From the NCBI GenBank assembly GCA_963665845.2, contig OY762492.1:96001-160000 (forward strand): a stretch of 64,000 nt of DNA, given 5' to 3'. This document shows positions 9,380-39,934 of the stretch, in pieces (positions within the stretch are counted from its first letter, which is position 1; every line of letters starts with the position of its first letter). The translations under genes and the position numbers were made by a program. This DNA is from Candidatus Poribacteria bacterium (GTDB lineage: Bacteria; Poribacteria; WGA-4E; GCA-2687025). The notes beneath the pieces were generated by a model that was not told where the DNA came from, did not search any database, and saw only the letters and a list, made by a program, of their open reading frames with translations.

Positions 9380-9724
9380 ATGACCCGATTTTCGTTTCAA
9401 CGCCGCGTTCGCACCCTTTCCTCTGAACAATACGCCATTTTCGACAACGAGGCGGATCTGCCGACCCAAGCGGTTGGGCAGGCGGACATCCATTACAGTA
9501 TGGACGCTTTTCGATTTTCGGCGTCGATTGTGCTGATGCAGGATGCGTTGGACGAGGAGAGCGTGGAGGAGCTGATTGCGGCGTTGGACGCCGCCGCTCT
9601 TGCCGCCTCCAACGGGGGCGCAGATCGGCATGTGGTCGTCTTTTTTGCCTCCGACAGCGCGGTGTACGATTTTGGAGACGAAGACAGCGAAGAGGAGTTC
9701 ACAGGAGAAATCCAGGTGGTATGA
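9380..9724 (+). CDS. Small acidic hypothetical protein
   Basis: GGAG RBS; 114 aa with acidic C-terminus; host-like codon usage. Confidence 0.65.
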   Translation: MTRFSFQRRVRTLSSEQYAIFDNEADLPTQAVGQADIHYSMDAFRFSASIVLMQDALDEESVEELIAALDAAALAASNGGADRHVVVFFASDSAVYDFGDEDSEEEFTGEIQVV

Positions 9725-9771
9725 TCATCTTCGCGCCGCGCTCAATTCAACTTCAAGATGGAGAAACAACC

Positions 9772-10530
9772 ATGAAAATACTGATCAGATCGCTGTGCGC
9801 CGCCGCGTTCGCCTATCTGCTGACCGCGCCGACAGCCGGGGCAGATATGGTGTTCTATCTGCCGATGGACGAAGGAGCGGGAGCGCCGCAGGACGTCTCC
9901 GGCAATAACAACCATGGAGCCTTTGAAGCCGAGCCGGACTGGATCGACGGACAATTCGGCAAGGCTCTCAGCTTCAAATCGCAAAAGTGGCTGAAGATAC
10001 CGGTGGGCGACCCTGACATCTTCATCAACCCGTTCACCGTCACGGTCTGGATCAATCCGCCCTTGGCGGGGAACACGTGGCAGCAGGTGGTGCGGTGCGG
10101 ACCTCACAACGGCTCCGGCCGTTACTCATGGTTCGTCAACAACGGCGGATTCATGTCCTGGCGCGGATTTGCCGGCGGCGGATGGAACGCATGGAGCACC
10201 ATGCCGGGCGGCGTCATCTCCGCGAACGAATGGACGCAGGTCGCGATCGTCAACACAGGCGACGAGTTTGTCAACTATGTCAACGGCAAAGAGGTGAATC
10301 GCAACGCCTTTGCCGCCGGCGACGGACAGACAACCTATGTCGGACTCGGCTGGGACGGCGTTTCGGGCGGCGAGTTTTATGACGGCGCGGTGGACGATGC
10401 CGCCGTCTTTGACGAAGCGCTCAGCGCCGACGACATCGCCAGGTTTGCGGACGGGACGGTCGGCGAAGCGTTGAGCGTCGATCCGCAGGGCAAGGCGGCC
10501 GTTTCCTGGGGCTTGTTGAAGTCTGAATAA
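9772..10530 (+). CDS. Secreted LamG / concanavalin A-like domain protein
   Basis: GGAG RBS, signal peptide, YLPMDEGAG..DVSGNNNHG, GQFGKAL, YVNGKEV, DDAAVFDEALS; C-terminal VDPQGKAAVSWGLLK. Confidence 0.88.
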   Translation: MKILIRSLCAAAFAYLLTAPTAGADMVFYLPMDEGAGAPQDVSGNNNHGAFEAEPDWIDGQFGKALSFKSQKWLKIPVGDPDIFINPFTVTVWINPPLAGNTWQQVVRCGPHNGSGRYSWFVNNGGFMSWRGFAGGGWNAWSTMPGGVISANEWTQVAIVNTGDEFVNYVNGKEVNRNAFAAGDGQTTYVGLGWDGVSGGEFYDGAVDDAAVFDEALSADDIARFADGTVGEALSVDPQGKAAVSWGLLKSE

Positions 10531-13207: not shown

Positions 13208-16051
13208 ATGTCGAACTGGTACTCACAGGATTTATTCTTTCTTCAAAAAACTTTAGACACCAATCTTAAGACAGGATTAACGCCCACGGAGGCGCAGCGC
13301 CGGCGCGGCGAGTCGGCAGCGAACGACGATCTAATTTTCTGGCGCCCGACGCCGTTTTTCAAAGCGGTCGCGGAGCAGGCGTCCAATGCGCGCAGCCTCG
13401 CGCTTCTGATTCTTGGGGTCGCGGGGCTTTTGTACGGGCTGTCGCAGAGCGCGGCGCTCTATATCGGCGGCGCGGTTCTCGGTTTGACGATCCTTGAGAT
13501 CGGAATGCGGACGGCGCAGCAGATCATCTTAGAAAATCATCTGAGCTGGATTGAGCGGGGCAGTTACCGAACGGCGCGCGCCATGCGGGGCGGTCAAACG
13601 GCGGAGTGCTTCCCGAACGAGATCGTCCCCGGCGATGTGATCCATCTTCAGGCGGGCGACTATGTGCCGGCCGACGCCCGCGTCTTTGAGTCGAATCGGC
13701 TGCGGGTCAACGAGTTTCCGCTGACCGGCTTCTCGGATATGCAAGAGAAGCAGATTGAGCCGCTTGAAAGCGGCGTCAGCCCGTCGCGCCATTCCGACCA
13801 GACCAACATGGTTTTTGCGGGAACCTTTGTGCATGCCGGCTCCGGGAAAGCGGCGGTGGTCGCCACCGGCGCCGATCGGGCTATCTGTAAAAAATACGCC
13901 CGTCAGACGATTCAGCTGCCGAAATCGGAATCCAGCGCGCGCCTTGAGCGGATCGCGCCGTATTTGACTTGGACGGGCGGCATCGGCGGCGTCGTCTTGA
14001 TGTTCGCGCTTATAGCGCTGGGTACCGATGTTTTGACCGCGGCGGCGGCGGGGGCGGCTCTATTCGCCGCGGCGGCTCCTGGGTATGGAGCCATCGCCTC
14101 GGCGATCGTCTTCACGCAGGGCATGCGCCAGCTGCGGTCAATGGACGACGCATGGACGATTGTGCAAAAGCCGGAAGCTTTAGAAAAAATGAGCGGAGCC
14201 ACCGCGCTCTGTTTCGACCCGAAGGGCGTCTTGACCTACGACAAGATGTCGCCTCAACAAGTTCTGGTCGACGGACAGATTTACGATATAGAGGCGATAC
14301 GGCAGATGTTCCAAGAGGAGCAGGACGCCGAAGAAGCGCCGCTTGACGACCCCGCTCCGGCTCCGGCGGCGGAGCCTAATGAAGAAGAAGAGGAGCCGAC
14401 CGGCAAAGAGGCGGACATATCTGACCAAGAGGAAGAGGCGCCGACATACGAAAAGCCGCAGGACATGTACATGCTGCTGCTCGCCGCCTCGTTGTGCGCG
14501 AAGCATTCCGCTCCCGGCGAGGAGGGGGTCGCCGGCGTTGACCCGCTCACGTTAGAGGCGCTGTATGAGCTGAACGATATTGTCGGACTTCCAATAGACC
14601 GTTACGACAAGAGCCTCGTCAAAAAACGGGAGACGCCTTACAACTCGGAGACGAAATGGCAGCGCGTCGTCTTTGAAAAGCCGGACGGCAAATATGTGGA
14701 GTTCATCATCGGACGAAGCCCGCAGCTGATTGAGCTGTGCCGGCTGACGCGGATGCATGGCGAGGTGGTCGTTCTCCCGACGGGGCAGCGGGAGTATCTG
14801 CAGGGCGTGAACCATTATTTCCAGTCCGATTACATGCAGACCTTGACGGTCGCCTACCGCGACATCAACGACTTAGATGAGATGGCGGACGCGCCCGAAC
14901 GGATGAACCAGAACATCATCTTTTTAGGGATGCTCTGTTTTCACAACGAGCCGCGCGAGGATATTCAAAAGGTGATCCAACGCTGCCGCGACGACGGGCT
15001 TCGGCTCATGGTCATGTCGGACGGGGAGATCTCGCATGTGGAGAGCATGGCGCGCCACGCGGGGCTGCTTAGCAATTCGCAGCAGTCGCTGTCGGGCGAG
15101 GCGATTCAGCGGATGGAGGATGAGGAGCTGATGCTTCGCCTGGACGACGCGGTGGTGTGCGCGCAGATGCCGAGCGAACAGAAGGCGCGCGTGATACAGA
15201 TGCTGCAGCAGAAAGATCAGCGGGTCGCGTTCCTCGGTTCTCAGCTGGCGGACATACCGGCGATGGAAGCGGCGGACATCGGCTTGGCGCCGTATGACGG
15301 AAGCGCGGACGCGCTGGCGCATGAAGCGGGCGCGCTGACGCTGGATTCCAGTTTAGGCGGTCTCTACAACCTGCTGAAATTCGCCAAGAACGCCGGCAGG
15401 CGCGTCGCGTGGACGGCAAGCTGGACGCTCTCGGTTCATATCGGCCTCGCGGCGATGCTGATCGCGTCCTATGTTCTTTTTGAAATGGGCAAGCAGTGGA
15501 CGCTCCCGATAGAGGTACCGGAGCCGCTGTCGCTGGGGGCGATACTCTGGACGCAGCTGCTGGCTCTAGGATATCCGCTGACGGCGATGGCGCGGAGCGT
15601 CAATCTGACCCCCTCTAGACGCCGAATACTCGCCAATCAGCTGGATCAGCGGATACTGCAGTGGCGGTCGATCATATGGCAGGGGTTGAGTTTAGGCGTC
15701 ATAGGGTTTTTCATAGGGCTTCTGTTCTGCGAGTTTTCCGAAGCGTCTGACGCGCATAAGAGCGCGTTATACGGAGCTTTGCTGATCTTTTTATGCAGCG
15801 CGCTGGTCATGTTGACGCGCGGACTGGCGGGCATCGACACCTCCAGGATCGCGTTTTTCCGAGCAAACGGCGGGTTGCTGCTCGTATTCGCCTTCGCTGT
15901 CGCTGTCGCTGTCATTGCGATGACGACGCCGGCGTTAGGGTGGATTGATGGCAGCGCGCCTGGAGCGCGCGCCGGCGTCTCGTTTCCGTCAGAATGGTGG
16001 ATCGGCGCCATACTGGCAGCCGTGTCATGGTTCGCAACAACAATGGAATGA
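13208..16051 (+). CDS. P2-type cation-transporting ATPase-like protein with degenerate catalytic motifs
   Basis: GLTPTEAQRR, IVPGDVIHLQAGDYVPADAR, NMVFAGT, AVVVATG, PSEQKARVI, ~10 hydrophobic segments; but DPKGVLT, TGFS and GSQLAD replace the canonical motifs. Confidence 0.85.
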   Translation: MSNWYSQDLFFLQKTLDTNLKTGLTPTEAQRRRGESAANDDLIFWRPTPFFKAVAEQASNARSLALLILGVAGLLYGLSQSAALYIGGAVLGLTILEIGMRTAQQIILENHLSWIERGSYRTARAMRGGQTAECFPNEIVPGDVIHLQAGDYVPADARVFESNRLRVNEFPLTGFSDMQEKQIEPLESGVSPSRHSDQTNMVFAGTFVHAGSGKAAVVATGADRAICKKYARQTIQLPKSESSARLERIAPYLTWTGGIGGVVLMFALIALGTDVLTAAAAGAALFAAAAPGYGAIASAIVFTQGMRQLRSMDDAWTIVQKPEALEKMSGATALCFDPKGVLTYDKMSPQQVLVDGQIYDIEAIRQMFQEEQDAEEAPLDDPAPAPAAEPNEEEEEPTGKEADISDQEEEAPTYEKPQDMYMLLLAASLCAKHSAPGEEGVAGVDPLTLEALYELNDIVGLPIDRYDKSLVKKRETPYNSETKWQRVVFEKPDGKYVEFIIGRSPQLIELCRLTRMHGEVVVLPTGQREYLQGVNHYFQSDYMQTLTVAYRDINDLDEMADAPERMNQNIIFLGMLCFHNEPREDIQKVIQRCRDDGLRLMVMSDGEISHVESMARHAGLLSNSQQSLSGEAIQRMEDEELMLRLDDAVVCAQMPSEQKARVIQMLQQKDQRVAFLGSQLADIPAMEAADIGLAPYDGSADALAHEAGALTLDSSLGGLYNLLKFAKNAGRRVAWTASWTLSVHIGLAAMLIASYVLFEMGKQWTLPIEVPEPLSLGAILWTQLLALGYPLTAMARSVNLTPSRRRILANQLDQRILQWRSIIWQGLSLGVIGFFIGLLFCEFSEASDAHKSALYGALLIFLCSALVMLTRGLAGIDTSRIAFFRANGGLLLVFAFAVAVAVIAMTTPALGWIDGSAPGARAGVSFPSEWWIGAILAAVSWFATTME

Positions 16052-17379
16052 AAACGATGGCAAGAACATCGCCCCGCCTCCGCATACGTCTTAATTGGAA
16101 GCGCGCTCTCGGCTGTTTTGCCGCTCTCATGCTGGCGGCGGGGCTGATCGTCGGATGGGCGTCAGCTCTCCCGCGCGCCGACTCGCCAGAAGAGGTCGGC
16201 ATGTCGTCGGAACGGCTGCAGCGGCTCGACAAGGTCATGCGGCAGTATGTGGACAATCAACGTCTCGCGGGAGCCGTAACGCTCATCGCGCGGCGCGGAA
16301 AGATCGCCCATCTCGGCGTGTACGGCATGGCGAACCGCGAAACGAAACAGCCCATGCAGAGCGGTACGCTTTTCCGCATCGCCTCCATGACGAAACCGAT
16401 TACGAGCGCCGCCGCCATGATGCTCTATGAAGAGGGGAAGTTTCGCCTTGATCAGCCTGTTGAACAGCTGCTGCCGGAATTCAAGGACGCGCGGGTCGTC
16501 AAGGAAAACGCGGACGGCGGCGGGGACGAAGCGTTTGAAGAGCCGATACGAAAAATGACGATACGGCATCTGTTGACGCACACGTCAGGGCTGACCTACG
16601 GAGGCGGGCCGGCGGCGCCCTATTACCGCGGCAAGCGACTCAATCCTGGCTTCAGGCTCGCGGACATCACGCTGGCGGAGATGAGCGAGGAGCTGGGGAA
16701 AGTCCCGCTGGCGTTCCACCCCGGCGACCGATGGCAGTACGGTTATTCAACCGATGTGCTGGGTCGCGCGGTGGAGGTTGCGTCGGGGATGACGCTGGCG
16801 CAGTTTTTTGAGGAGCGCATCTTCAAGCCGCTCCAGATGAACGACACCGCCTTTTTCTATCCGAAGGAGGCGAAGGAGCGGTTTGCGGTCGTCTACTCGC
16901 CGGACGCGGAGGTCGGCTTGAAGCCGCATCCGAGAATAACGCAGTTCGGCTGGCGCTCCGTCGCGTATCCGTATGAGGGACCGCAGAAAACCTACTGCGG
17001 CGGAAGCGGACTCAGTTCGACGGCGGTCGACTATGCGCGGTTTTGCCAGATGATCCTGAACGGCGGAGAGCTGGACGGCGTCCGGCTGCTTAGCCCAACG
17101 ACGGTGGAGATGATGTCGCGGGACAACCTGAAGGCGGGGGTGGAGTTTCGCAGCGGGCAGCGGTTCGGGCTGGGGTTCATGACGCATACGAACCCGACAG
17201 CGTCGCGCTCCGTAACCTCCGCGGGGACGATACGATGGAGCGGCATCTGGCATACCGCCTTTTTCATCGACCCGCAGCAGGAACTGATCGGAATCATCAT
17301 GACGCAGCTGTATCCGACTGGGTGGCTGGACGACCAGAAGAAGTTTGAGATGATGACGTATCAGGCGATTTTGGATTGA
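16048..17379 (+). CDS. Serine hydrolase, beta-lactamase (class C-like) family, secreted
   Basis: IASMTKP (SxxK), HLLTHTSG, PGDRWQYG, GLSSTAVDYARF; ATGA overlap with the upstream stop. Confidence 0.9.
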   Translation: MKTMARTSPRLRIRLNWKRALGCFAALMLAAGLIVGWASALPRADSPEEVGMSSERLQRLDKVMRQYVDNQRLAGAVTLIARRGKIAHLGVYGMANRETKQPMQSGTLFRIASMTKPITSAAAMMLYEEGKFRLDQPVEQLLPEFKDARVVKENADGGGDEAFEEPIRKMTIRHLLTHTSGLTYGGGPAAPYYRGKRLNPGFRLADITLAEMSEELGKVPLAFHPGDRWQYGYSTDVLGRAVEVASGMTLAQFFEERIFKPLQMNDTAFFYPKEAKERFAVVYSPDAEVGLKPHPRITQFGWRSVAYPYEGPQKTYCGGSGLSSTAVDYARFCQMILNGGELDGVRLLSPTTVEMMSRDNLKAGVEFRSGQRFGLGFMTHTNPTASRSVTSAGTIRWSGIWHTAFFIDPQQELIGIIMTQLYPTGWLDDQKKFEMMTYQAILD

Positions 17380-18762
17380 TCAGGGGCCGAAAATATCTTT
17401 TAGCGATTCTTCAGGCTCTTCAGCTTGAACAGGGGCTGGTTCTGGTTTTATGGGCCCGCTTCGTTGGATGGTGAGTTTGCGTTCCCATTCTAGATCCTCA
17501 AAGCGATCTAAAAAAGGGCATTCTTTTTCGATGGCGCTGAAATAGACCCACCGCTCCGCGCGCGTGATGCCGAGAAACAGCTCCTCCTGCGAGACGCTGT
17601 CAGATCCCAACAAGGGCATGCGGTTTTCGCTTTCTAAGCCTGGCATCAACACAGTGTCGAAGGTCAAGCTTTTGGCTTTTTCACATGCCATGGCTTTGGG
17701 GCGTCCATTGTTGAAGTCGATCTCTTTTTCGTTGTCTATTTCGTCAACCATTAGTCCGGCATTCTTTAAACCTTCGATATAAATTTGTTTGTCAAATAAG
17801 CGCGTAAACAGAATTGCCACGCGGTCGCCGTTACCAATACAGGAGCGGGCAACTTCCGCCAAGCGGTTGATTTCATCGTTATCGTCTTGCGCAAGGTAAA
17901 GCAGAGGGCGTTGGCGTTCACCCTTCTCGATGACAGGATACTGGGTCAAAAAGGCGGCGCGTTCCAGCTCTTGCCCGACAAACGCCGCCGCAACAGGGGC
18001 AATATGCGCGGGGCCTCCGTAGATATCCAACAGATTTACGTTGGGCCGTCGCAGTTCCAATTCTGAAAGAATCTCCTTTTCGCCGGCTCCTCTGCTGGAC
18101 GCTTGCTGCTTGCTGTCCATAAAAGTAGTGACATGCATGGAGGCGGTTTTCAGGACTCCGTAGGCGGATTTACCAACGTCCTGTCCATCGTCCACCAGAA
18201 TAAAATCGTAAAGAAATTTTGATTTTGTCATCAACTTTGTCATGTTCAAAGCGATTTTAGAGATTGCAAAATTGTTTTTCCTTTCAAGGCGGTTCGCCAT
18301 CTTGCGATCATAGAATTGATCGATCCACTTATCGAAATTTAAGCTGTTTCGAAGGAACTTGAGATCATCCTTATCCAGAAGGCCCAACTTTTTGCCCCAT
18401 ACGTCAAAGGCGGCTGAAAATGTTTCGACGAAGCTCTCGCGCGCCTTGCTTTTCATTTCTTGAAGATAAGATTTACGCAACTTTCGGTACCAATCGCCAA
18501 GGGTCGTTACGCAGTCGGAGGGTATGTCCATTTCTTTCAAAGCGGGGCGAAGATATTCCTTTTGAGCGTTGGAGGAAACGAAAATGCGGTACTTTCCGAT
18601 GGGAACGGGATAATTGTCCATGAGATGGCGGGCGCGGTACAGCAAAACATTTGTCTTTCCGGAACGCGGAGACCCGACAACCGCGCGGTGCCGCTCTATG
18701 TCCATCTCAATCGCGCGGACTTGATCCACCGTCAATTTGCTGCGCGGGACAAGCCAGTTCAT
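17380..18762 (-). CDS. UvrD/Rep-like SF1 helicase-domain protein (degenerate motifs)
   Basis: LTVDQ Q-motif, GSPRSGKT Walker A, ILVDDGQD, MDSKQQ, AKSLTFDTV, LGITRA. Confidence 0.8.
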   Translation of the reverse strand: MNWLVPRSKLTVDQVRAIEMDIERHRAVVGSPRSGKTNVLLYRARHLMDNYPVPIGKYRIFVSSNAQKEYLRPALKEMDIPSDCVTTLGDWYRKLRKSYLQEMKSKARESFVETFSAAFDVWGKKLGLLDKDDLKFLRNSLNFDKWIDQFYDRKMANRLERKNNFAISKIALNMTKLMTKSKFLYDFILVDDGQDVGKSAYGVLKTASMHVTTFMDSKQQASSRGAGEKEILSELELRRPNVNLLDIYGGPAHIAPVAAAFVGQELERAAFLTQYPVIEKGERQRPLLYLAQDDNDEINRLAEVARSCIGNGDRVAILFTRLFDKQIYIEGLKNAGLMVDEIDNEKEIDFNNGRPKAMACEKAKSLTFDTVLMPGLESENRMPLLGSDSVSQEELFLGITRAERWVYFSAIEKECPFLDRFEDLEWERKLTIQRSGPIKPEPAPVQAEEPEESLKDIFGP

Positions 18763-21185
18763 CAGTCGATCCTTACAGATTTGGCGTCGGCGTAGTCGGG
18801 CAGATCGCCTCCAAGCGGCGCATCAACTGAAGATTGACCAATACGCCGCGCCCATTCTGCGATGATCGCCTTCTGCAGCTTCTCGTCGCTGGCGAATACG
18901 GCTCCTGTGTAGTACCATCCCAGTTCCCAGTCAGAAAGCGTCCGGACAGGTCCAAACCGATTCAGAGCTTGTCTCATCTGCCTTTGACTCTCTGCTTTCC
19001 GCCCCTGTTTTGAGGCAATTTGCGCTTTCAAGACATAAGAAGGCGGTCTCTGGTCGCGCTCAATCGCCTTATCGATATTATTCTCCGCCTCTTCAAGGCT
19101 CCCGATCTTTTGCAGCATTGATGCGAGGTTGAACAGCGGGATGTCCCAAGACGGATCCAAGTGCGCCGCTTCAAGATAGTATTTTTGGGCGCGCTCGTAA
19201 TCTTGCATATCATGGCAAAGAATGCCCATTCGGTTAAAAAGAACATCATCAGGGCTGAACTTGCTGAGACTGATCAAAAGGCTAAGAGCCTTTTCCTGCT
19301 TGCCCAGCTCTTTCTCCAGAGTCGCAATTCTCATGACAATCTTTTTTTGCTCTTCCAGCGTCAACGTCTCGACTTTTATCCGCTCTTCTAATTCAAGAAT
19401 TTCGTTGCGCTTTGCGTTCGTGTTCACGACGTGCGTCAGCGGGTTCTCCACCTTACGAGAAAAATCGATCTCCGGTTTACCGGCGAGTTCAAGTTCGAGA
19501 AACAGCTTCTGGTTCAGGTCCATCCGATACCGCAGACGCAACGGATCTCCTTCATGAACAATCGGAGGGATGCGCCAAAGTTCTTTCATCAGCGTCTTCC
19601 CAGCGGAATTGGTCACTTCAACGCGGAGATCGAGGTGTTCTGAGATGACGGTTTTTGGAATAATGAGCCCGCTGTATTCCGCCCATCCGCTGTCGGACGG
19701 GTAAGGCAGCTCCGCGCCCCGCTCAATCAGCGTTTTGGATCCTTTTTCGGTGCGGATGCGTATGGCGCCACCCGCGGCGGGGCGGACGATTCCCTGTCCA
19801 AAAAGCTTCAAGGAAAGAGCTTGATAGGCGGCTCCTTCCGCGACTGCGGTTTGGACGCGCTCCAAATCGTCGAAGCGCAGGATTTCCGCTTCGCTGAAAA
19901 ATTCTTCTACAGCTTCCGCGATCTGCGGAATTAGACTGCTTCCGCCGACCATCAAACAGTAGTCCACCTCCCCGCGCTCTACTTGGGCGCGCTCGAGAGC
20001 GTCTTGAAGCGGGGCGAAGATAGAGCATGTCGCGTGATAATCGAATTCGCGCAGATTCAGCAGATCGGGTTCAAGGAACGGCTTGACCGCGTCTTCGAAT
20101 TGTTCGGTGGTCAGTTTGGGCGATTTCAAGGTCAGCTCATCGCCGTTTTTGAGTCGGCATTCATAGGTGAGGGGCAGCTCTTTAAAGGTCTTTTCGCGCT
20201 CCGTTTCGTATTTGCCGAGCTGTTTGAGCCGCGCAATTTCTTTGGACAAGCCGACTTTCAGGTTCTCGGCGACGCCCAACAACGCGGGTATGACAAATCT
20301 GGATTTTGCCTGATAGTCCAGCTCGTTCTCATCCAGCCTGTTCTGCTCTATGAGCTGCGGGATCAGAACGTTGACAACGATTTCGCGGTCAATGTCTCCG
20401 CCGCCGAGTCGGTGGTATCGGGAAACGGAAAGCGGGGCGATCCGTATCGGCGCTCCTTGCGCTTTCGGCGGCATCAGTTCAAAGAGCGCGACATCGCAGG
20501 TTCCGCCGCCGAAGTCGAACATGAGCAGTCGGCGCTGTCCGCTGACTTCGGCGAAGGCGCTTCTGCCTCGGTCGGCGAGGTAGGCGATGAAGGCGGCGAT
20601 CGGTTCGTCCAGGAGCGCGCCGTCGTCTAGACGGATGCCCGCCATTTCGACGGCTTCGATCGTGTCCTGCCGCTGCGGCGCTTGAAAAGAGGCGGGTACC
20701 GTGACGACTGTTGAGGCGATCGGATCGCTGTTGTCGTCAAGGGCGGCGTCCATGAGGAATTTGAGGATATGTCCGCTAATCTCTTTGGCGGACTGAAAGC
20801 CTTCGGGAGCTTTATGGTAGGTTCGCCGGACGCCGATCTCGTTTTTGCATTCCCAGAAGATGTCTCGATTCTGCTCTAAGTCGAAACTGCTTAAGTCGGA
20901 ACGGAGCCGCTTAGCTCCCTCGCCGACAAACCGATCGCCGTTATGAAGCGCAACGACCGATGGGACGAGAATATCGGTGTAGAGTCCTTCGCGCGTTTCT
21001 TGTTCAACTTCGATGCATTGGACGGGCGGCAGTTTCAGGCTGTCGGGCGGCAGGACGATTTCGGCAACGGCGGAATTCGTTGTGCCGAGGTCAATGCCGA
21101 TGACGCGGAGGGGTCCGTCGGCGGTTCGTATCGTCTGGTTTTCAGGGGCGATGATGCTCAGGTTGTTCATGGCTTCCGTTCTCAT
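18762..21185 (-). CDS. Atypical Hsp70-family ATPase with C-terminal TPR repeats
   Basis: GIDLGTTNS, TVPASF, LDEPIAA, FDFGGGTCDV, LGGGDID, VGGSSLIP; C-terminal TPRs (FNRMG...YERAQKYY..AAHLDP, FNLA...EEAE..IDKAI). Confidence 0.88.
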   Translation of the reverse strand: MRTEAMNNLSIIAPENQTIRTADGPLRVIGIDLGTTNSAVAEIVLPPDSLKLPPVQCIEVEQETREGLYTDILVPSVVALHNGDRFVGEGAKRLRSDLSSFDLEQNRDIFWECKNEIGVRRTYHKAPEGFQSAKEISGHILKFLMDAALDDNSDPIASTVVTVPASFQAPQRQDTIEAVEMAGIRLDDGALLDEPIAAFIAYLADRGRSAFAEVSGQRRLLMFDFGGGTCDVALFELMPPKAQGAPIRIAPLSVSRYHRLGGGDIDREIVVNVLIPQLIEQNRLDENELDYQAKSRFVIPALLGVAENLKVGLSKEIARLKQLGKYETEREKTFKELPLTYECRLKNGDELTLKSPKLTTEQFEDAVKPFLEPDLLNLREFDYHATCSIFAPLQDALERAQVERGEVDYCLMVGGSSLIPQIAEAVEEFFSEAEILRFDDLERVQTAVAEGAAYQALSLKLFGQGIVRPAAGGAIRIRTEKGSKTLIERGAELPYPSDSGWAEYSGLIIPKTVISEHLDLRVEVTNSAGKTLMKELWRIPPIVHEGDPLRLRYRMDLNQKLFLELELAGKPEIDFSRKVENPLTHVVNTNAKRNEILELEERIKVETLTLEEQKKIVMRIATLEKELGKQEKALSLLISLSKFSPDDVLFNRMGILCHDMQDYERAQKYYLEAAHLDPSWDIPLFNLASMLQKIGSLEEAENNIDKAIERDQRPPSYVLKAQIASKQGRKAESQRQMRQALNRFGPVRTLSDWELGWYYTGAVFASDEKLQKAIIAEWARRIGQSSVDAPLGGDLPDYADAKSVRID

Positions 21186-21258
21186 GCGTCGTCGTCAGTT
21201 TATGCGAATCAGCCAACTTTATTATAGCGCCTTTTCTTGCCGGGCGCTCGTTTCGCGT

Positions 21259-22173
21259 CTAAGTTTTGTCTGCCTGTTTTTCAAAAAGCCGCTGTTGGCG
21301 GGCTGTTTTGCGCGGCGATTCGTACGGCGTTGTTCCGTAGTTGGTGATCAGAGCCTCAGTCATGGCGTTGCGGTTTTTTTCTTTGGCGCCTAGGTGGTAG
21401 AAATGGCTTCTCGTTTGGAGGTGGAAAGAAGCCCATAGGCGTTCGATATAGGGGTTTTTTCGGAAGCGGTTGCTGTGCCATGTTGAAAGGATGAAGCCGC
21501 ATGGCGCCTTCGAGAGCGAGCGCGCAAGTTGGCGTTCATGGTCTTCGCCCCATCCGCTGAAGTAGTCCGCATGCCGCGCGATGTAGGGCGGATCGCAATA
21601 GAGAAGATCGCCCTTTTGCGCCGCTTCGATGGTCGCGGTGAAATTCTGGCAGCGGAATTCATAGGCGCCGAGGGCCGTCAGATTCGAGACGGCTTGAACC
21701 TGATTGGCGATTTTCGTTATGTATGCTTGAGAAAAGCGGTTTGGTTTTCGGCAGAACGGGACGTTGAACTGCCCTTTCCGGTTGAATCGCATCAGTCCAT
21801 TAAAGCATGCGCGGTTTAAAAATAGAAAATCTAGCGGGTCTCCGCGCTGGTTGAACCGTTCTCGTACCGCGTAGTAATGTTCGCCTTCTGAGCGCCGCAG
21901 CTCTGCGCCTTCTTCTTTGAGAAAGCGGCGCGTTGAATCCGCGGTGATTTGGCTGTCGGCGACCGCTTGATAAAAGCGGATAATGTGCGGGTTGGAATCT
22001 GCCAGCAACGCTTTCTTTGGGCGGACATTGAACGCGACGGCGCCCGACCCCATGAACGGCTCAATCCATCTCCCGCTGAATTCGGGCGGCATCGCTGAAC
22101 GTATCCATGGCGTCAGTTTGGTCTTGATGCCTTGACATTTGATCGGTGGTACGAGCGTTCTGTTGAGAGTCAT
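21259..22173 (-). CDS. Dam-family DNA adenine methyltransferase, M.EcoRV-like
   Basis: VPPIKCQGIKTKL, EPFMGSGAV, FNGLMRFN, YCDPPY. Confidence 0.92.
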   Translation of the reverse strand: MTLNRTLVPPIKCQGIKTKLTPWIRSAMPPEFSGRWIEPFMGSGAVAFNVRPKKALLADSNPHIIRFYQAVADSQITADSTRRFLKEEGAELRRSEGEHYYAVRERFNQRGDPLDFLFLNRACFNGLMRFNRKGQFNVPFCRKPNRFSQAYITKIANQVQAVSNLTALGAYEFRCQNFTATIEAAQKGDLLYCDPPYIARHADYFSGWGEDHERQLARSLSKAPCGFILSTWHSNRFRKNPYIERLWASFHLQTRSHFYHLGAKEKNRNAMTEALITNYGTTPYESPRKTARQQRLFEKQADKT

Positions 22174-23003
22174 TTGCGGTTGTTTCTTGGGACAATGAGC
22201 GATGCGTCGCCGCCTCGGTATTGGACAAACTCTTTGAGCGAGGTGATTCGTTTCAGTTCCCCAGTTTCGCTTTTCACAGTGATTTTACCATAATTCATCC
22301 AGTAGTCGTCAAACCATTCTTCGCCGAGATTTGCGAACATTCCGTTTACGGACAAAATATCCTCGATTCGCTGAATGCTCCCGATATTCGCTGTGTTGCC
22401 CGACCCTCTCTTGTCGCTTGCGATTTTCCATTTTTCGGACACAAAAAACTGGATATTCGAAATGGTTGACGCGATGGACTGGAGTTTGTCAAGGGAATGC
22501 GGCTGCGTCTGGTCTCTTGTTGAGCTGTCTGATCGGTCGTAAATGATTCCGATGCAAAAATGTCCCGCGTAGGAGCTGTAGGGAAACTGGATATTTTTCA
22601 CGCTTGAGCGGTCTCTAAAATATCTCCCATGCGACCCCAATGTGAAACCGTTGCAGAGCCAAGGTTTTTTGGGATTGCGGTAGGTCGTTTTGAAATCGAC
22701 GGCGAATCGTATTTTTTCATTGTCCTTCGAGACAAACGAAATGTCTGGATAGTAATTTTGATGCTCTGGAAGAACGACTGCAAGACGCTGCTGTTCGGCA
22801 AACTCAAGAATTTTGGGGAACAGGTGAATCTCCAAGATTTTGGATACGACCTTCGTATCTGCCGAAATCGTGTAGATTTGTCGAGAAATATCGATAAATC
22901 CCTTGACAGCCCATTGTCCGTCCGGCGCGCTGGCATGATCGGAAAGGGCGCTTTTCCATGCGTTCAGAGCAGATTCAAAGTCGCTTTTCGTCATTACGGG
23001 CAT
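22170..23003 (-). CDS. Type II restriction endonuclease, EcoRV family
   Basis: DTKVVSKILE, QNYYPD...VDFKTTY (PD..DxK), FTLG, KNIQFPY, recognition-loop-like GSGNTANIGS; ATGA overlap with the MTase. Confidence 0.9.
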   Translation of the reverse strand: MPVMTKSDFESALNAWKSALSDHASAPDGQWAVKGFIDISRQIYTISADTKVVSKILEIHLFPKILEFAEQQRLAVVLPEHQNYYPDISFVSKDNEKIRFAVDFKTTYRNPKKPWLCNGFTLGSHGRYFRDRSSVKNIQFPYSSYAGHFCIGIIYDRSDSSTRDQTQPHSLDKLQSIASTISNIQFFVSEKWKIASDKRGSGNTANIGSIQRIEDILSVNGMFANLGEEWFDDYWMNYGKITVKSETGELKRITSLKEFVQYRGGDASLIVPRNNRK

Positions 23004-27179: not shown

Positions 27180-28685
27180 TCATCGAAGCATAAGGAAGGT
27201 GGACAGCGGCAAACTGACGATGCGCGGATCATCGACCGTTTCGGCGTCCACCTGCGTGATGAGTATTCCGAAGGGGGCGTTGTTCGCCGATTTTTCCAAA
27301 AATGAGCGCAGCCCCAACGTGTCGCGGTGCGAATCGATGCGCTTGCGGTATTTCACTTCTACAGGGATGCGGTAATTGCCAACCGTCAAAACAAAATCGA
27401 CCTCCTGGTCCATACCTCTTTGCGGAAAATGAGCGATGTCGAGACCATGAATGGTTGAAGCCGCCGCGCCAAAGACGCTTTCCGCGATACGCCCAGCCAT
27501 GTGCGACATTTCAGGCTGTGCCGCTAGAATGTCCGGCGCAAGCGGAATCTGCTCCTGGAGCCAACAGGCGCGGAGGCTATGGTCAGCCAAGCATATTTTG
27601 GGTCCGCCGCGGTTCTTTTTCAGACGGAGCTCCAAAGGAGGAACCAACCTCAACAGCAGCGTATCTCCAAGCAGCTTCAAGTAGCTGACAACGCGCTGAT
27701 AGTTAATGCTTGATCCAAGCTTCAAATGCGCTTCTTCCGTTAGAGTGGATGCGTTGGGAGCTTGACCCGCGTAGCGGCATGCCAAACGCAAAACCTCTTC
27801 CAATAATTCTGGGTCCCGTTGCATTCCTCGTCCGCTTGCCTGCAGGTCATGCTGAATAACTCTCTGTATGACCGTCTCATTCAGATGCCCCGTCAAATCT
27901 GCCATCGGAACATCTTTTTCTTTATGGGCTATTGGGTAGCCGCCTCTCTCTGAAAAAAATCGAAACGCTTCATCTCGAAATTCTTGCTGCGCCGCCCCGT
28001 GATCGCGCAAAGCCGCCCAATACTCTTTATCGCGCAGATTGGAGATGCCGTTCTCCTCAAGAAACGGCGCCGACGATGAAAGACCGCGCAGCGCGCCGAT
28101 CTCCGTAAGCGACAGGACGCCCGCCTCAATTGTGGTGATGCGACCCGCGAGGCTGTCGCGTCCGGCTTCAATGCGTAAGGCAGAACTGCCCGTAACGACC
28201 GCTTTTACGGAGGCGCGATCCACGAGAGACTTCAGCTGCGCGTCCCAGCCTTTTAGGTTTTGGATTTCATCAAAAAAGAGATAAGCAGGTTCGCTGTCAT
28301 GCGCCAGCGCATTGAACCGTTTGGGCGCGACATGCCGCTCAAACCAGTCGGCGACGCGCAGGATCGGCTCCCGAAGTTTTTTCAACGAATCCAGCTCGTC
28401 AAATTGAATGCGCAGAATGCGTCGGGGATCGACTCCCTCGTCTAGCAGGTCCTGAATCAGCTGGAGCTGCGCTGTCGTCTTGCCGATTTGACGCGGCCCT
28501 CGAACCACAACTGCCGGCGCCAAGCCGAGGTCTAAGCTTCGGCGAATCTGCGGAACCAGATGGCGGCGAATAGAGGGCTGCAGCGGCATCGCGTCGCCCT
28601 CCCACCACGGGTTGAAACTGCGCAGATCCGCCGACAGATCCTGGGGAAGATTCATATCGGCGAAGAACGCTATCGGACCAGCCAT
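27180..28685 (-). CDS. AAA_14 ATPase + DUF4143 (PD-(D/E)xK C-terminus) protein
   Basis: FNPWW, GPRQIGKTT, FFDEIQ, VTGSS, SLAGR, GGYP, EVDFV..IPVEVKY. Confidence 0.9.
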   Translation of the reverse strand: MAGPIAFFADMNLPQDLSADLRSFNPWWEGDAMPLQPSIRRHLVPQIRRSLDLGLAPAVVVRGPRQIGKTTAQLQLIQDLLDEGVDPRRILRIQFDELDSLKKLREPILRVADWFERHVAPKRFNALAHDSEPAYLFFDEIQNLKGWDAQLKSLVDRASVKAVVTGSSALRIEAGRDSLAGRITTIEAGVLSLTEIGALRGLSSSAPFLEENGISNLRDKEYWAALRDHGAAQQEFRDEAFRFFSERGGYPIAHKEKDVPMADLTGHLNETVIQRVIQHDLQASGRGMQRDPELLEEVLRLACRYAGQAPNASTLTEEAHLKLGSSINYQRVVSYLKLLGDTLLLRLVPPLELRLKKNRGGPKICLADHSLRACWLQEQIPLAPDILAAQPEMSHMAGRIAESVFGAAASTIHGLDIAHFPQRGMDQEVDFVLTVGNYRIPVEVKYRKRIDSHRDTLGLRSFLEKSANNAPFGILITQVDAETVDDPRIVSLPLSTFLMLR

Positions 28686-28777
28686 GAAACCCCTTTATCA
28701 GCCGCTTACGGAATAACCGTTCATCATGATAACGGACGGCGCCTGAAAGCGCAAACCGCGGACGGGCAACTTCCCGC

Positions 28778-28853
28778 GCCGCTGTTGAATATCGTTCGGA
28801 AGAAGCTGGGGTTTTAGCCCGTCTATATTATCGACAGCGTATAATATAGAGCG
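28778..28853 (+). repeat. ~75-bp direct repeat copy B, with perfect 10-bp inverted repeat
   Basis: Re-encodes PLLNIVRKKLGF*; contains TCTATATTAT-N9-ATAATATAGA. Confidence 0.9.
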
Positions 28854-28903
28854 CGAACCCGTCTATGCTAAAGGCTGCCTTTAATATGGGACGCTGTTTT
28901 CCG

Positions 28904-30070
28904 TTACGGGCTTTCATCGCTGAATAGGTCGAGATAATCGACGTACCAGAATAGGCGGTTGCGCGTCTGCTCCGTAAGCTCGCTTAGAATGCGAGCCTCC
29001 ACCAATCGCTTCACAAGGTCGTTGGCTGCTGGATAGGACGTTCCAATGATGTTCTGCACTTCTTTCACAGAGATCACTGGAGATTCGTATAGACGCTCCA
29101 GCACTTGATGCCCGTTTGCGGCTGTCCGCCCAAAGTTTTCCGTGATCGCATGGCGATGTTTTTCGCGCAGCAAAATAATCCGGCGGGCTGTATCGGCCGC
29201 TTGGCGGGCGACTTCATTCACGCCGCGCAGAAAGAAGAGGAGCCATTCTTCCCATGTCCCGGCGTCTCGGATCGACTGGAGTTGGTCGTAATATTGCGGG
29301 CGATTCCGCTTGAAAAAATAGGACAGATACAGAACAGGTTTCTGCAGCGCCTGCCGCTCGCAGAGAAGAAAGGTGATCAACAGACGCCCGACGCGGCCGT
29401 TTCCATCGTTGAATGGATGGATCGTTTCAAACTGCGCATGCGCCAACCCGATTTTGATGAGCAGCGGCAGATGAGCGTCGGACTGGATAAATGATTCCAG
29501 GTTCAACATGTCTTCCCTGACCTGATGCGGCGGAGGCGGGACAAAGACCGCTTCATGAATTGAGCAGCCGGGCGGCCCGATTATGCTCTGCTTGATTCGC
29601 AGTTCGCCTGGCGCGAGGTCTCCCCCGCGGACGCCTTCCATCAGCTTTTGATGGATTTCGCAAATTAAGCGAGTCGAAACAGGCGCCTCCTGCAGTCTGT
29701 CTAAGCCGTAACGCATGGCGCGGACATAATTGACCACCTCGCCCGTGTCGTCCAAACGATGCGGGCTGTCGTCCATCGATTCCGCTTTAATCAGATCCAC
29801 CAACGAACTCTGCGCGCCTTCGATTTGGCTGGATAACACCGCCTCCTTGCGCACATACATCTTCGTGAACATATCTGGATTCGGCAGCGTCCATATCGAC
29901 CCGTCCAGCCGACCGACAGCGCGGTCCGCCTGAGAAAGCCGCTCCAGCAACTCGCCCTCAATCGCAATGGGCGGGTCGGACGGCGGCAGCGGGTTTGGGA
30001 AAAAAGCCTTGTAGCCTTTTCGCTGGCGGATGTATTGACCCGCTCTGTTGGAGGTTGCGCGGCTGTTCAT
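28904..30070 (-). CDS. Fic family protein (Fic_N + Fic + C-terminal HTH)
   Basis: HPFNDGNGRVGR motif; EAVLSSQIEG inhibitory-type motif; ATGA overlap with the SIR2 stop. Confidence 0.93.
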   Translation of the reverse strand: MNSRATSNRAGQYIRQRKGYKAFFPNPLPPSDPPIAIEGELLERLSQADRAVGRLDGSIWTLPNPDMFTKMYVRKEAVLSSQIEGAQSSLVDLIKAESMDDSPHRLDDTGEVVNYVRAMRYGLDRLQEAPVSTRLICEIHQKLMEGVRGGDLAPGELRIKQSIIGPPGCSIHEAVFVPPPPHQVREDMLNLESFIQSDAHLPLLIKIGLAHAQFETIHPFNDGNGRVGRLLITFLLCERQALQKPVLYLSYFFKRNRPQYYDQLQSIRDAGTWEEWLLFFLRGVNEVARQAADTARRIILLREKHRHAITENFGRTAANGHQVLERLYESPVISVKEVQNIIGTSYPAANDLVKRLVEARILSELTEQTRNRLFWYVDYLDLFSDESP

Positions 30071-31389
30071 ATCTTGCTCCAATCAAAATGCTCGGCCTCC
30101 GCTTCAACGATTCTGAGATTGTTTTTTCTATAACAATCCATCCCTTGGAATATAGTTACCACATATTCTTCCGGACGACATGAAAAAATATTCTGAACTG
30201 AGTTCCGAATATTTCTTGGGTGCTTATCCACTATCAGTATGTCTTTATCCTTGTTATCCCTAATAATGTCGTTTAGATGCTCATCGGCATAATTGAAGGA
30301 GTAGCCTACAATCACTATTCTAGCAGCGGAGTCTAAAATTTCTTTTGATTTATGCCATACATCGATGAAGCCCCAGGTATCAATTAAACCGGTCAAAGCC
30401 GGTTTGCATTTTAAAGGCGGAATAATACATGGAAGGCTATAGGAATCTGCGACTTCTTTTTCAAACCTGATCTCATTCGCAACAGTACTTTTGATGAATT
30501 CAACTGGGTCTATATTTTCGTCCATTGAACATTTTACCCCGTCAAGCATTCTTGTATAGTTAGACAGCTCACCATGAAAATAGTAGGGTGGATTGCCGCC
30601 AGTACGTTCAGCAGATTTTTGAGCAAAGGATGTATAATTAAGAGTAATCATTTCCCAATCATTAGGCAGTGAAGAATAAAAGGGGAGAGGTTTGCCATCG
30701 GAAAATTTGGAATATGCGGCTTCCTCTTGATGTTTAAGAAAAGCCCAAAGAGTCCATGCTTGATATATGTATCTTTTTATTTTCGCGACATCGTTTGTAT
30801 AAATCCCAAAGAAACTATCTGTTAGCAAGCGTTCGAAATTAATTAGGTTTGATGTAAGATGCCTCAATATACGGTGATTGGGGGTACGCAAGGCTGTATC
30901 TAGAAGGTTGTGTATAAGTTCATTAAACCTCCCAGTAAATGAAGCCCTTGATAGATCAATAACGTCGAAATCATCTATCGGAAACAAATTTTGTTGGGAA
31001 CCCCCTTCATTAAGAAGCATCTTAATCTCTGGGCTTATTCGTACATCCCTTTGAATTCCTTGAATTTTTATTAATATATTAATAATTAGCCTACCCATAT
31101 GTTTATCAGAAGCGTTTATATTTTCATCATTAAGTTCGTAATTAATACTCTCTACAATTGCATCTGTATCATCTCTGTAAGCATTTAACATATTTTGAAC
31201 AGTTTCTGTCGCGAGTGTACTGTACATGAACCTGAGATACGGTAAAGCATCTCTGAGAGATTTGTCAACAGCTTTCCCATCTTCTGTGTTCAAAAACTCG
31301 GTGATTTTCGGGATAAGCTCCGACGCTAAAGGCATGCCTGCCGCTCTGTCCGCGCCTGCTCCGCAAATGACGACCGTTTTCTTTTCCAT
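30067..31389 (-). CDS. SIR2-like (SIR2_2/AbiH-type) NAD-binding domain protein, low GC
   Basis: VICGAGA...GMPLASEL, ITLNYT, YFHG, IIPP, IVGYSF..ADEHLN; GAGGAG RBS before ATG 31389. Confidence 0.8.
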   Translation of the reverse strand: MEKKTVVICGAGADRAAGMPLASELIPKITEFLNTEDGKAVDKSLRDALPYLRFMYSTLATETVQNMLNAYRDDTDAIVESINYELNDENINASDKHMGRLIINILIKIQGIQRDVRISPEIKMLLNEGGSQQNLFPIDDFDVIDLSRASFTGRFNELIHNLLDTALRTPNHRILRHLTSNLINFERLLTDSFFGIYTNDVAKIKRYIYQAWTLWAFLKHQEEAAYSKFSDGKPLPFYSSLPNDWEMITLNYTSFAQKSAERTGGNPPYYFHGELSNYTRMLDGVKCSMDENIDPVEFIKSTVANEIRFEKEVADSYSLPCIIPPLKCKPALTGLIDTWGFIDVWHKSKEILDSAARIVIVGYSFNYADEHLNDIIRDNKDKDILIVDKHPRNIRNSVQNIFSCRPEEYVVTIFQGMDCYRKNNLRIVEAEAEHFDWSKI

Positions 31390-31457
31390 CCCGATGCTCC
31401 TCGCTTTCTCGTTGCGCTCAAAACTTCGGCTCAACGCCGTTTCTTTCTTATGCCCAT

Positions 31458-31487
31458 ACTCTACCACAAGGGCGCGACCCGTGTCAA
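31458..31487 (-). promoter_or_regulatory. Putative sigma70 promoter for SIR2-Fic
   Basis: TTGACA-N18-TAGAGT with TGTGG just before the -10. Confidence 0.5.
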
Positions 31488-31488
31488 C

Positions 31489-32916
31489 TCAAAAGAGCGT
31501 TTGTTTCAAGAGGTCGCCTGTGTAAGGGTCAGCCATCGGCGGCAAGGGGCATGGACGCTCGTTGAAAAACTCCTCGATTGACCAGAGGCTGAGGCGCGGA
31601 TACGCTTGCCCGCGGACGACGATATCGCCCAAATCGGCTGCATTCGCTCTTGCGGTTGAGGAAGTGACCGTTTCTAGCGTAATGAAGCGTCCGATAGCCG
31701 CCTCGCTGCGTTCAACAACGCCGATAAAGTCGCGCAGGCTGCTCAAGTTAAACCGCCCGCCTTTCACCTGCGCCAGCGCCAGTCTGGATTTCCAGTTGTC
31801 AGGCTGGTCGTATATAGTGGCGCGTCCGTCCACGCCTCCGTCGGCAACCTGCTTCGTATTCGGGACGAATCCTGACAATCGGTTCACCGCCCAGGATTCA
31901 AATTCAAAGGGCGATTCCTTTGCCATTTTTTGCGCCGACACAAAATCCGCCGGGATTCCATGAACCGGTATCGTCAAGTCCTTCATGCGCTGCTCGCGTA
32001 TGATGTCGATAGCGAAGGAGCTGATGTCGACGCCCGCCCATTTTCGTTTCAAGCGTTCAGCCGCGTCCATTGCAGTGCCGCAGCCGCAGAACGGATCTAA
32101 AACGATGCCGCCCTCGTTGGACGACGCCTTGATGATTCGCTCTAACAGAGACAGCGGCTTCTGCGTCGGATAGCCTAGACGTTCATTTCTTAAGCGTCCA
32201 ACCGGCGAGAAATCAGGCCACCATGTTTCCGGCACTTTCCCTTTCTGCAGGTACCTGTCCCGAACTTCCGGCGTCATATTGTCGCCCATCATGGCGCCGC
32301 CGCGGTGAGTATTTAATTTTTTGTAAGGGATGCGCACATCGTCAACGTTGAATATCCATGAATCTCCGTTGGAGTACCAAAAGATGACGTCATGCTTGCG
32401 TTTGAATTGGCGGACCTTTGACGATCCTGGACCTGTATAAGCCCAGATGATTTCGTTTCGGAAGTTGGCTTGTCCGAAGATGGCGTCCATGAGCAATTTT
32501 AGGCTGTGGCTCGCGGTCGGGTCGCAGTGGAGGTAGATGGAGCCTGTCGGTTTCAGAATGCGCCGCATCTCTTCAAGGCGCTCCGCCATGTAGGTCAGAT
32601 ATGCCAGCATGCCGCTCTCGCCCAGCATATGCCACAGCCCGACAATCGCCTTATGCGCCGGACGCCCGACCGCGTCTCGAAACCCGTTATACCGACGAGC
32701 CGCAGCCGTATCCCAGTACCAGGTGTCTTTGAACGCCCGGTATTGAGCCTTGCCCGCGCCTTTTGTCCCGAAGAGAATGCTGTAATTCGCGTTGGAATTG
32801 AACGGCGGATCTAGGTAGATCAGGTCAACGCAGTCCGCGTCCCATTTTCGCATCCAGTCGAAGCAATCGCCGTAGTAGAGGCTGTTGGGTTGAAGCTGGT
32901 TTCCGCTGTCAGCCAT
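31489..32916 (-). CDS. N6/N4 DNA methyltransferase fused to C-terminal Mrr-like endonuclease domain
   Basis: LYYGDC, IYLDPPFNS, IYLHCD, YPTQKP, LDPFCGCGT; C-terminal FEFESWA...DGGVDG...AQVKGG. Confidence 0.88.
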   Translation of the reverse strand: MADSGNQLQPNSLYYGDCFDWMRKWDADCVDLIYLDPPFNSNANYSILFGTKGAGKAQYRAFKDTWYWDTAAARRYNGFRDAVGRPAHKAIVGLWHMLGESGMLAYLTYMAERLEEMRRILKPTGSIYLHCDPTASHSLKLLMDAIFGQANFRNEIIWAYTGPGSSKVRQFKRKHDVIFWYSNGDSWIFNVDDVRIPYKKLNTHRGGAMMGDNMTPEVRDRYLQKGKVPETWWPDFSPVGRLRNERLGYPTQKPLSLLERIIKASSNEGGIVLDPFCGCGTAMDAAERLKRKWAGVDISSFAIDIIREQRMKDLTIPVHGIPADFVSAQKMAKESPFEFESWAVNRLSGFVPNTKQVADGGVDGRATIYDQPDNWKSRLALAQVKGGRFNLSSLRDFIGVVERSEAAIGRFITLETVTSSTARANAADLGDIVVRGQAYPRLSLWSIEEFFNERPCPLPPMADPYTGDLLKQTLF

Positions 32917-32985
32917 TTTCCGTATCCTTTCTTGAGCCGCGCCTTCATGATACCATAAAGCCGCCGTAGACGGCAACGATAACGC

Positions 32986-33130
32986 CCGACCTTGAGTCCT
33001 TAGTTGAGACAAGTCGGCATGCGAAAGCAGACGGATTTTGCGGCGCCTAAGATTCCCGCTTACGCGGGAATGACGACCCGCAGGGGCGGCTTTTCCGCTG
33101 ATCATCGCAGTTCTTTCGGCATGAGGTCAG
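32986..33130 (+). mobile_element. MITE copy 3
   Basis: CCGACCTTGAGTCCTTAGTTGAGACA ... CGGCATGAGGTCAG; exact 6-bp flanks TAACGC/TAACGC; palindrome at 33052-33071. Confidence 0.78.
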
Positions 33131-36362: not shown

Positions 36363-36474
36363 GAATGACGCTGAAAAAGGCAGCCGCATTTAAAATAGCC
36401 CGCCCGCGCCCAAAGCGGTATCATATCCCTCGTTGACCGCTGAACCAACCCGCTCATCCGATTTGGAGAGCCTG

Positions 36475-39855: not shown

Positions 39856-39865
39856 AGCACAGCGA

Positions 39866-39897
39866 ATTCCCCTTGAAAAGGGGGGCTAGGGGGGTTT
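39866..39897. repeat. CCCCTTGAAAAGGGG hairpin repeat
   Basis: TTCCCCTTGAAAAGGGGGGCTAGGGGGTTT; same family at ~10596, 43388, 50231 (reverse) and 58540. Confidence 0.8.
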
Positions 39898-39934
39898 TAG
39901 CGTCAGCAGATGTCCTCTCCTGCGCCTCCTTGCC

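Follow-up and report, generated by a model that had tools for sequence, protein, structure and literature searches.

What might an Hsp70 that ends in tetratricopeptide repeats (TPRs) and a UvrD-like helicase do together, encoded by overlapping genes directly behind a restriction-modification (R-M) system? The question is raised by a stretch of 64,000 nucleotides from a Candidatus Poribacteria genome (assembly GCA_963665845.2, contig OY762492.1, positions 96,001 to 160,000; hereafter the window). Both open reading frames claimed in an earlier, sequence-only reading of this DNA exist on the minus strand: an Hsp70-TPR ATPase of 807 aa (18762–21185) and a minimal superfamily 1 (SF1) helicase-fold protein of 460 aa (17380–18762). 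The genes share 1 nt in a TGATG stop/start overlap (18760–18764, minus strand) that couples them, as that reading had also stated, and an AAGGA lies upstream of the helicase start. The database gene call begins the Hsp70 at Met6 (21170), giving 802 aa, and Met6 is the probable start. We conclude that this pair is likely an anti-phage module without a name so far, and that the helicase of the window is likely a regulator and not the output. It makes a defence candidate of just two genes, spread over several phyla and missed by PADLOC. Because it has no obvious killing domain, its output would be unfamiliar in kind.

The helicase follows the Hsp70 in nearly all homologous loci. The 87 loci that we examined comprise five of six genome loci (a match to TPRs only was dropped), two of 80 viral loci and 80 metagenome loci (the best 80 of 552), and 70 of them are informative in that at least 500 bases downstream of the Hsp70 gene are available. 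In 68 of these 70 the helicase gene is directly behind the Hsp70 gene, within 20 nt in 65 of the 68, and the figure is 58 of 60 loci once Hsp70s are merged at 90% identity; these counts run in the Hsp70-to-helicase direction, every locus having been picked via its Hsp70. The proposal of a two-gene module is borne out by this co-occurrence. A search that began with the helicase and looked for an upstream Hsp70 gave one new match, located at a contig edge. L100 has a truncated helicase, and the helicases of L139 and L152 are split. A distant form of the pair, at about 26–32% identity, has the same gene order in a Bacteroides-like viral contig and in two plasmids, with differing downstream genes. 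In two further proteins, P0189 and P0214, an Hsp70 nucleotide-binding domain (NBD) is fused directly to the helicase, without the substrate-binding domain (SBD), the TPRs or the acidic tail described below, and with partly decayed Hsp70 motifs. The helicases of these fusions group together (0.87), so the two proteins may go back to one event.

The Hsp70 has an intact catalytic core within an unusual architecture. Pfam detects HSP70 (2e-32) as well as TPR models at residues 650–776. In the AlphaFold model (pLDDT 87.7, pTM 0.83), an NBD (about 26–462) is followed by an eight-strand beta-sandwich (about 467–588) and then by a helical bundle with TPRs (about 591–784), which stand where DnaK has its lid. 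The motifs DLGTTNS, K114, P164, R172, DEP (193–195) and DFGGGTCD are invariant or nearly so in 44 homologues, in agreement with the earlier claim of intact ATPase motifs. Aligned with the genome's own DnaK, the protein keeps the phosphate loops, three catalytic residues (K114 as the Lys, E194 as the Glu and T229 as the Thr) and a Pro/Arg switch formed by P164 and R172. Several other elements of DnaK are altered. The VLLL linker is replaced and reads GQGIVRP, the position equivalent to DnaK R167, a J-domain contact, is also replaced, and the NAEG loop of DnaK, its GrpE-binding loop, is extended into a hairpin in which Q62, T64 and G67 are invariant. Because the VLLL linker and the R167-equivalent position are replaced, ordinary DnaJ-driven folding by this protein seems unlikely. 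Its score of 118.7 bits is far below the NCBIfam cut-off of 648 bits, so that it fails the equivalog test for DnaK/HscA. Its close relatives form a tight family of proteins about 800 aa long, in which the best 120 of 3342 matches (its own record excluded) show 44–72% identity over nearly the full length. It is typical of that family, departing at 15 of 200 conserved columns (median 13). The genome's ordinary dnaK lies at 1.634 Mb of C1, and grpE-dnaJ at 0.808 Mb. The sequence-only reading was therefore correct that no dnaJ or grpE is near the pair, but this fact does not discriminate, as the ordinary dnaK is also remote from grpE-dnaJ, and we rejected the absence as evidence. One member of the same family, P0060, has a Ser/Thr kinase fused N-terminally to a full Hsp70-TPR.

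Members of the helicase family are about 410 aa long and have a minimal fold like that of PcrA/UvrD, with two RecA domains but neither domain 2B nor a nuclease; PcrA and UvrD are nearest both by profile and by fold. Pfam matches the window protein to UvrD-helicase (2e-6), and 345 helicase representatives (50% clustering) score below 1e-30. Searches with the single-protein folds of the pair gave only DnaK/BiP-type and PcrA/UvrD-type entries among the matches listed. The helicase also has a lineage-specific helical insertion, a disordered linker and an acidic-hydrophobic C-terminal tail. This tail is found in 45 of 52 paired helicases and 107 of 167 in a wider set; among neighbour proteins it occurs in 5 of 298, and neither of the TPR-less fusions has it.

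The window's helicase departs strongly from this family. The fold of an SF1 helicase proposed from sequence was confirmed, but the degeneracy of the motifs in this copy had been overlooked. Five positions are substituted: G33R in Walker A (G in 162 of 166 homologues), E192D in Walker B (E in 159), Y222S in motif III (Y in 135, F in 23), R249G in motif IV (R in 161) and G365S in motif V (G in 164), while K36, T37, D191, Q219 and R401 are retained. The Walker B DE, the motif III aromatic residue, the motif IV Arg and the motif V Gly that mark an active SF1 helicase are thus all missing. With these five substitutions, the protein would make a poor motor. Of 97 conserved columns it departs at 25, where the family median is 5. 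However divergent, it is not alone: together with P0122, P0123, P0125 and P0126, which are 41–86% identical to it, it forms a clade with support 1.0, and these four share the motif decay (they lack the Walker B Glu and the motif IV Arg) with frames still open. Hsp70 motifs are intact despite the decayed helicases in P0002 and P0003 as well as in the window. From these patterns we infer a long-lived pseudo-helicase lineage and not a fresh pseudogene. A second decayed helicase (L113:12421–13731, with GVVGTGKT and VDDGSE) is separately placed in the tree, which suggests repeated loss of catalysis.

A predicted complex supports binding of the two proteins. We folded a canonical homologous pair, L098, with residues 19–798 of the Hsp70 and 202–419 of the helicase, that is, its C-terminal half, using paired alignments that we made ourselves. 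The ipSAE was 0.75, against 0.00 for the best of three controls, runs agree in at least 78% of contacts, and the partner pLDDT is at least 78. The score mark was reached by 116 of 157 solved pairs versus 2 of 215 mismatched pairs, counts that are only roughly valid for self-made alignments. The complex modelling that had been suggested as a check thus came out in favour of binding, and no solved Hsp70-helicase complex is known to us that the model might simply have reproduced. Given in residue numbers of the window proteins, the model places helicase strand 279–287 against the Hsp70 hairpin 64–72, and helicase residues 303–312 and 335–339 at lobe IIB of the Hsp70 (304–315 and 335–340). In this model the second RecA domain (2A) of the helicase bridges the nucleotide cleft of the Hsp70, from the family-specific hairpin on lobe I to lobe IIB. 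The strand laid on the Hsp70 (EKGERQRPLLY) is retained across the pseudo-helicase clade. The helicase tail, at 454–458, is likely the partner of the Hsp70 contacts at 600–643, where the helical/TPR region starts; the tool lists interface residues per side and not their pairs. Docking of the tail on the TPRs or the SBD had been predicted from the fusions before the complex was folded. The helicase is predicted to sit on the cleft surface that GrpE uses on DnaK. According to PMC4753570, GrpE wedges into the cleft of DnaK and rotates subdomain IIB, which opens the chaperone. If the helicase does occupy the GrpE site of an Hsp70, this would widen both chaperone biology and the range of known immune switches.

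The pair is rare and scattered. The helicase profile was found in 2 of 151 genomes of the same phylum, namely the window's own copy and an unrelated long frame, and in 3 of 401 and 1 of 401 genomes of two other sampled groups. By record titles, the hosts of relatives include the PVC group, Actinomycetota, Desulfobacterota-type bacteria, Bacillota, Gammaproteobacteria and Bacteroidota. To describe the context, we took 72 merged loci and compared their nearest neighbours, at most two genes per side, with PADLOC, and 11 recurrent clusters of neighbours were labelled from two members each; the control consisted of 28 of 39 fetched random sites in the window's own genome, some of them overlapping. 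R-M, DISARM-like, BREX, Hma, Druantia or Dnd genes stand beside 32 of the 72 loci. Among the 25 fully flanked loci, with four neighbours, 14 have genes of these classes versus 5 of 28 control sites (p=0.005), and 16 versus 8 of 28 have a defence-type match of any kind (p=0.014; 42 of the full 72 loci), with the proviso that neighbour categories were coded by hand and that both p values are overstated, the test loci being related and the control coming from one genome. The commonest neighbours are type IIG methylase-nuclease and PLD-SNF2 genes, in clusters found at 13, 7 and 20 of the 72 loci. The pair thus combines a location in defence islands with a patchy distribution, as is expected of an anti-phage defence system. 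Carriage by phages found no support: no helicase match occurred among 50,697 phage records, near-full-length relatives were present only in L007 and L008 of the 80 viral-contig loci (the others match little beyond the generic Hsp70 core), and the helicase scan gave weak matches only.

The strongest local evidence for a defence-type context is the exchange of the whole pair for other cargo. The flanks of the slot recur in a genome of the same genus, G008, with a match of 87% up to 17380 and of 91% from 21189, and the intervening slot (17381–21188) holds a methylase-HNH gene and a SIR2 gene there (PADLOC candidate PDC-S65, 7e-189) in place of the Hsp70 and helicase genes. Both cargoes stand behind the same TATAAT box (21221–21226, minus strand), which lacks a matching -35 element and is absent from the promoter scan list. 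The R-M pair next to the slot is present in G008 without the Hsp70-helicase module. Both states of the slot are present in X5, a public run from another study: one contig matches the left flank to 17380 and then diverges, and in another a 90%-like helicase is attached at 17380. The defence-type setting proposed from sequence is thus upheld by the neighbours of the wider family as well as by this exchange. The cargo of G008, at L191:4475–8017 (G008:C21, about 60474–64016), consists of a 561-aa N6/N4 methylase-HNH fusion and a 602-aa SIR2 protein.

How would such a pair work? A role in defence or conflict, by whichever route, is probable. We lean, tentatively, towards a reading in which the helicase fold is the built-in regulator of the Hsp70 in a mobile defence module, the window lineage having kept only this regulator role. 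In typical members, single-stranded nucleic acid of an invader would engage the helicase, which would then open the Hsp70 cleft as an exchange factor would, and the beta-sandwich and TPR end of the Hsp70 would in turn grip or release a target protein as the output; the acidic tail would tether the helicase at the start of the TPR region. In the window lineage the helicase would have been reduced to a pseudo-enzyme that acts as regulator only. Because the model puts the tail at the TPR start and the helicase body on the exchange-factor surface, it suggests that control may run from the helicase to the Hsp70. The sequence-only reading had assumed the reverse, that the Hsp70 switches the helicase on, and this finds no support for the window copy with its substitutions G33R, E192D, Y222S, R249G and G365S. 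A bolder version, which we consider unlikely, makes the helicase a true nucleotide-exchange factor of a dedicated Hsp70; nucleic acid of the invader, or the acidic tail of an invader protein by displacing the tether, would flip a chaperone switch that goes on to act on a protein target. This would amount to a new class of bacterial immunity. Under it the complex would be the unit under selection, because one lineage lost helicase catalysis and the fusions lost the Hsp70 motifs and TPRs, and the helicase would be a second type of bacterial Hsp70 exchange factor, GrpE being the only one described for bacteria (PMC4753570). Several observations speak against the helicase as a regulator within a defence module. 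L135 and L168 carry the Hsp70 without any trace of a helicase, and in the fusions P0189 and P0214 it is the helicase that stays near-canonical, which points to it as the output there. The fold covers the C-terminal half of the helicase from L098 and not the window's own pair, predicted interface columns are not above average in conservation (0.59 vs 0.60, and 0.58 vs 0.60), and no more than 17 of 41 and 16 of 31 of these columns agree with the consensus in the window copy. Neither protein has a nuclease or toxin domain. Finally, 30 of the 72 loci have no defence-type match among their nearest genes, many of their contigs being short, and the related loci and single-genome control inflate the significance of the enrichment. 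Each direction of signalling leaves one lineage unexplained.

The reverse direction would have the TPRs or SBD bind a protein from a phage, for example an acidic C-terminal tail like the one on a phage's SSB (single-stranded DNA-binding protein), which would displace the helicase tail, whereupon the Hsp70 would free the helicase and its motor activity or burning of ATP would be the output; the window copy would then be disarmed or repurposed. We hold this to be rather unlikely, but it draws on the strong selection of helicase motifs in most of the family (Walker B E in 159 of 166, motif VI R in 163 of 166), on the fusions, both of which retain the helicase and drop the SBD and TPRs, and on tails that in some cases end in DLPF or DFPL. 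SSB tails resemble such ends, and phage SSBs are known as triggers of several defence systems. The helicase, however, has neither 2B nor any nuclease, and a catalytically decayed form is kept across five divergent proteins, with Hsp70 motifs intact in the window, P0002 and P0003. The missing effector domain, together with the frequency of type IIG methylase-nuclease and PLD-SNF2 neighbours, could instead mean that the pair is inert alone and chaperones or reactivates type IIG, type III, Hma or BREX machines beside it, for instance by stripping DNA-mimic inhibitors. This is quite improbable, given that the neighbours belong to many unrelated classes (IIG, III, I, Hma, BREX, Druantia, Dnd, EcoRV-type IIP) where there are any, and that an EcoRV pair persists in G008 without the module. 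A mobile stress-response or nucleic-acid quality-control pair that shares integration hot spots with defence genes would account for an Hsp70 fold with a complete beta-sandwich, and islands do gather many kinds of cargo; PMC12642450 considers that DnaK-like domains in fusion with EACC1 proteases might sense stress. The presence in fewer than 1% of genomes in the two sampled groups, the exchange with SIR2 and methylase-HNH genes, and the replaced VLLL linker and R167 position, with which ordinary DnaJ-driven folding is unlikely, make this explanation improbable. That the window copy is merely a decaying remnant, its helicase drifting to loss and the locus without current function, is very hard to believe: the departures at conserved columns, a long branch in the tree, and a stop that coincides with the slot junction, two residues having been added beyond the tail, would fit it, but the Hsp70 is typical of its family, frames are open across the clade and the contact strand is kept. 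With the helicase as regulator still the reading that we prefer, the window locus offers a natural variant with a catalytically decayed helicase, and the fusions a natural variant without TPRs.

The surroundings of the pair in the window are as the sequence-only reading described them. Upstream of the Hsp70 gene and on the same strand are a Dam-type adenine methylase (21259–22173) and an EcoRV-family restriction endonuclease (22170–23003; match 1e-115), together a type II R-M pair. The helicase stop abuts, at 17379/17380 and with zero spacer, the stop of a convergent plus-strand gene of the beta-lactamase/serine-hydrolase family (15994–17379), and this stop is the left edge of the slot. Each of two public runs of one study, possibly the source sample, has a single contig that spans 16557–23000 with zero differences, so an assembly error is unlikely to explain the arrangement. 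The G+C content of the two genes (0.55 and 0.49; 0.64 and 0.57 at third codon positions) is below that of flanking housekeeping-type genes (0.60–0.62; 0.74–0.78). The C-terminal motif of a LamG protein encoded at 9721–10530 suggests a Poribacteria-like host. About 12 kb to the left of the window, at G000:C1 82571–84219 (L094, L096), there are weak helicase-profile matches, one with an internal TGA, which are possibly a split UvrD-like gene.

No conserved third gene accompanies the pair: this candidate was rejected after the genes downstream of the pair in three distant loci, L008, L178 and L180, proved unlike (BLAST of L008 against each), and there is no Atlas family for the downstream gene of L008. 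A short DprA/SLOG-like gene with a weak PsyrA match occurs near the pair in 11 of 72 loci (L002, L101, L107, L111, L147, L151, L152, L163, L164, L172 and L177) and is a possible optional third component. In L131 (13701–15539) a NERD-UvrD nuclease-helicase gene directly after the pair is a candidate for an effector supplied in cis, and in L004 a McrB-like AAA_5 gene lies three genes downstream of the pair. Elsewhere in the window, a second defence-like cluster (27180–33105) encodes an AAA_14/DUF4143 ATPase (PDC-S01), a Fic protein (SoFic 1e-116), an AT-rich protein of 466 aa that matches SIR2 weakly, and a methylase-Mrr fusion. A third R-M pair (50284–52358), made up of an EcoRI-type methylase and a GmrSD_N-HNH protein (REase_II 6e-126), is downstream of a 1910-aa double UvrA. 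Several long WD40-repeat proteins are encoded at 1480–3768 and 36433–41865, and HEAT-repeat proteins are frequent elsewhere in the genome.

As had been surmised from the sequence, the pair does not correspond to a named system: PADLOC, Pfam and NCBIfam name none for it, and we found no description of it in the literature searched, which mostly excluded subscription journals. Hsp70, DnaK and UvrD were not found in the main text of three discovery papers (10.1101/2025.01.08.631966, 10.1101/2025.01.08.631726 and PMC12366544), whose supplements may list the pair; PMC7159879 and PMC8195603 describe other uses of Hsp70. Among described systems, the III-B and III-C variants of CoCoNuT type III (PMC11090510) have CnuD, with Hsp70 NBD/SBD and HEAT-like repeats, and CnuH, an SF1 helicase. 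What they share with our pair is a predicted defence operon, often near R-M genes, that combines an SF1 helicase with a non-canonical Hsp70 whose tail is made of helical repeats. In contrast, the McrB-like NxD GTPase, McrC/DUF2357 and the CnuE nuclease of CoCoNuT are absent beside the window pair, no recurrent McrB/C cluster occurs among the neighbours of the 72 loci, and nuclease effectors (HEPN, Vsr, PLD) are absent from both window proteins. The motifs of CnuD are described there as degenerate, whereas those of the Hsp70-TPR are intact, and CnuH is large and UPF1-like with OB and coiled-coil inserts, whereas our helicase family is minimal, PcrA/UvrD-like and about 410 aa long.

The resemblance to the chaperones DnaK-GrpE, HscA and HscC lies in the nucleotide-binding fold, the catalytic residues and a partner predicted on the GrpE cleft surface. 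The Hsp70-TPR differs from them in having TPRs for a lid, an altered linker and a partner with a helicase fold instead of GrpE, in a genome with a separate, ordinary dnaK. Gabija is likewise a two-gene unit with a UvrD-like partner, and a weak match to the GajB profile (6.6e-8) is found. GajB regulates its partner GajA, which resembles the role that we favour for the helicase. However, the pair has no OLD-family ATPase-TOPRIM GajA, the upstream gene being an Hsp70 without a PADLOC match, and the GajB matches span 40–60 residues on models of 565–635 positions, with E-values of 7e-8 or weaker. STAND-type proteins join sensor, NTPase switch and effector in one tripartite chain, and Hsp70-like replacements are mentioned in 10.64898/2026.10.19.760177. 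Like these, and like the DnaK-EACC1-protease modules of PMC12642450, the pair would use an Hsp70-like NTPase as immune switch and repeats as interaction module; it differs in having neither a fused effector nor a protease, its partner being a separately encoded helicase. By analogy, then, the pair may work most like a repeat-bearing NTPase switch combined with a GajB-like regulator. Its domains and Hsp70-like immune switches are already known, and what is new is the composition and the predicted architecture, to which this locus adds an exchangeable slot, a pseudo-helicase clade and natural fusions.

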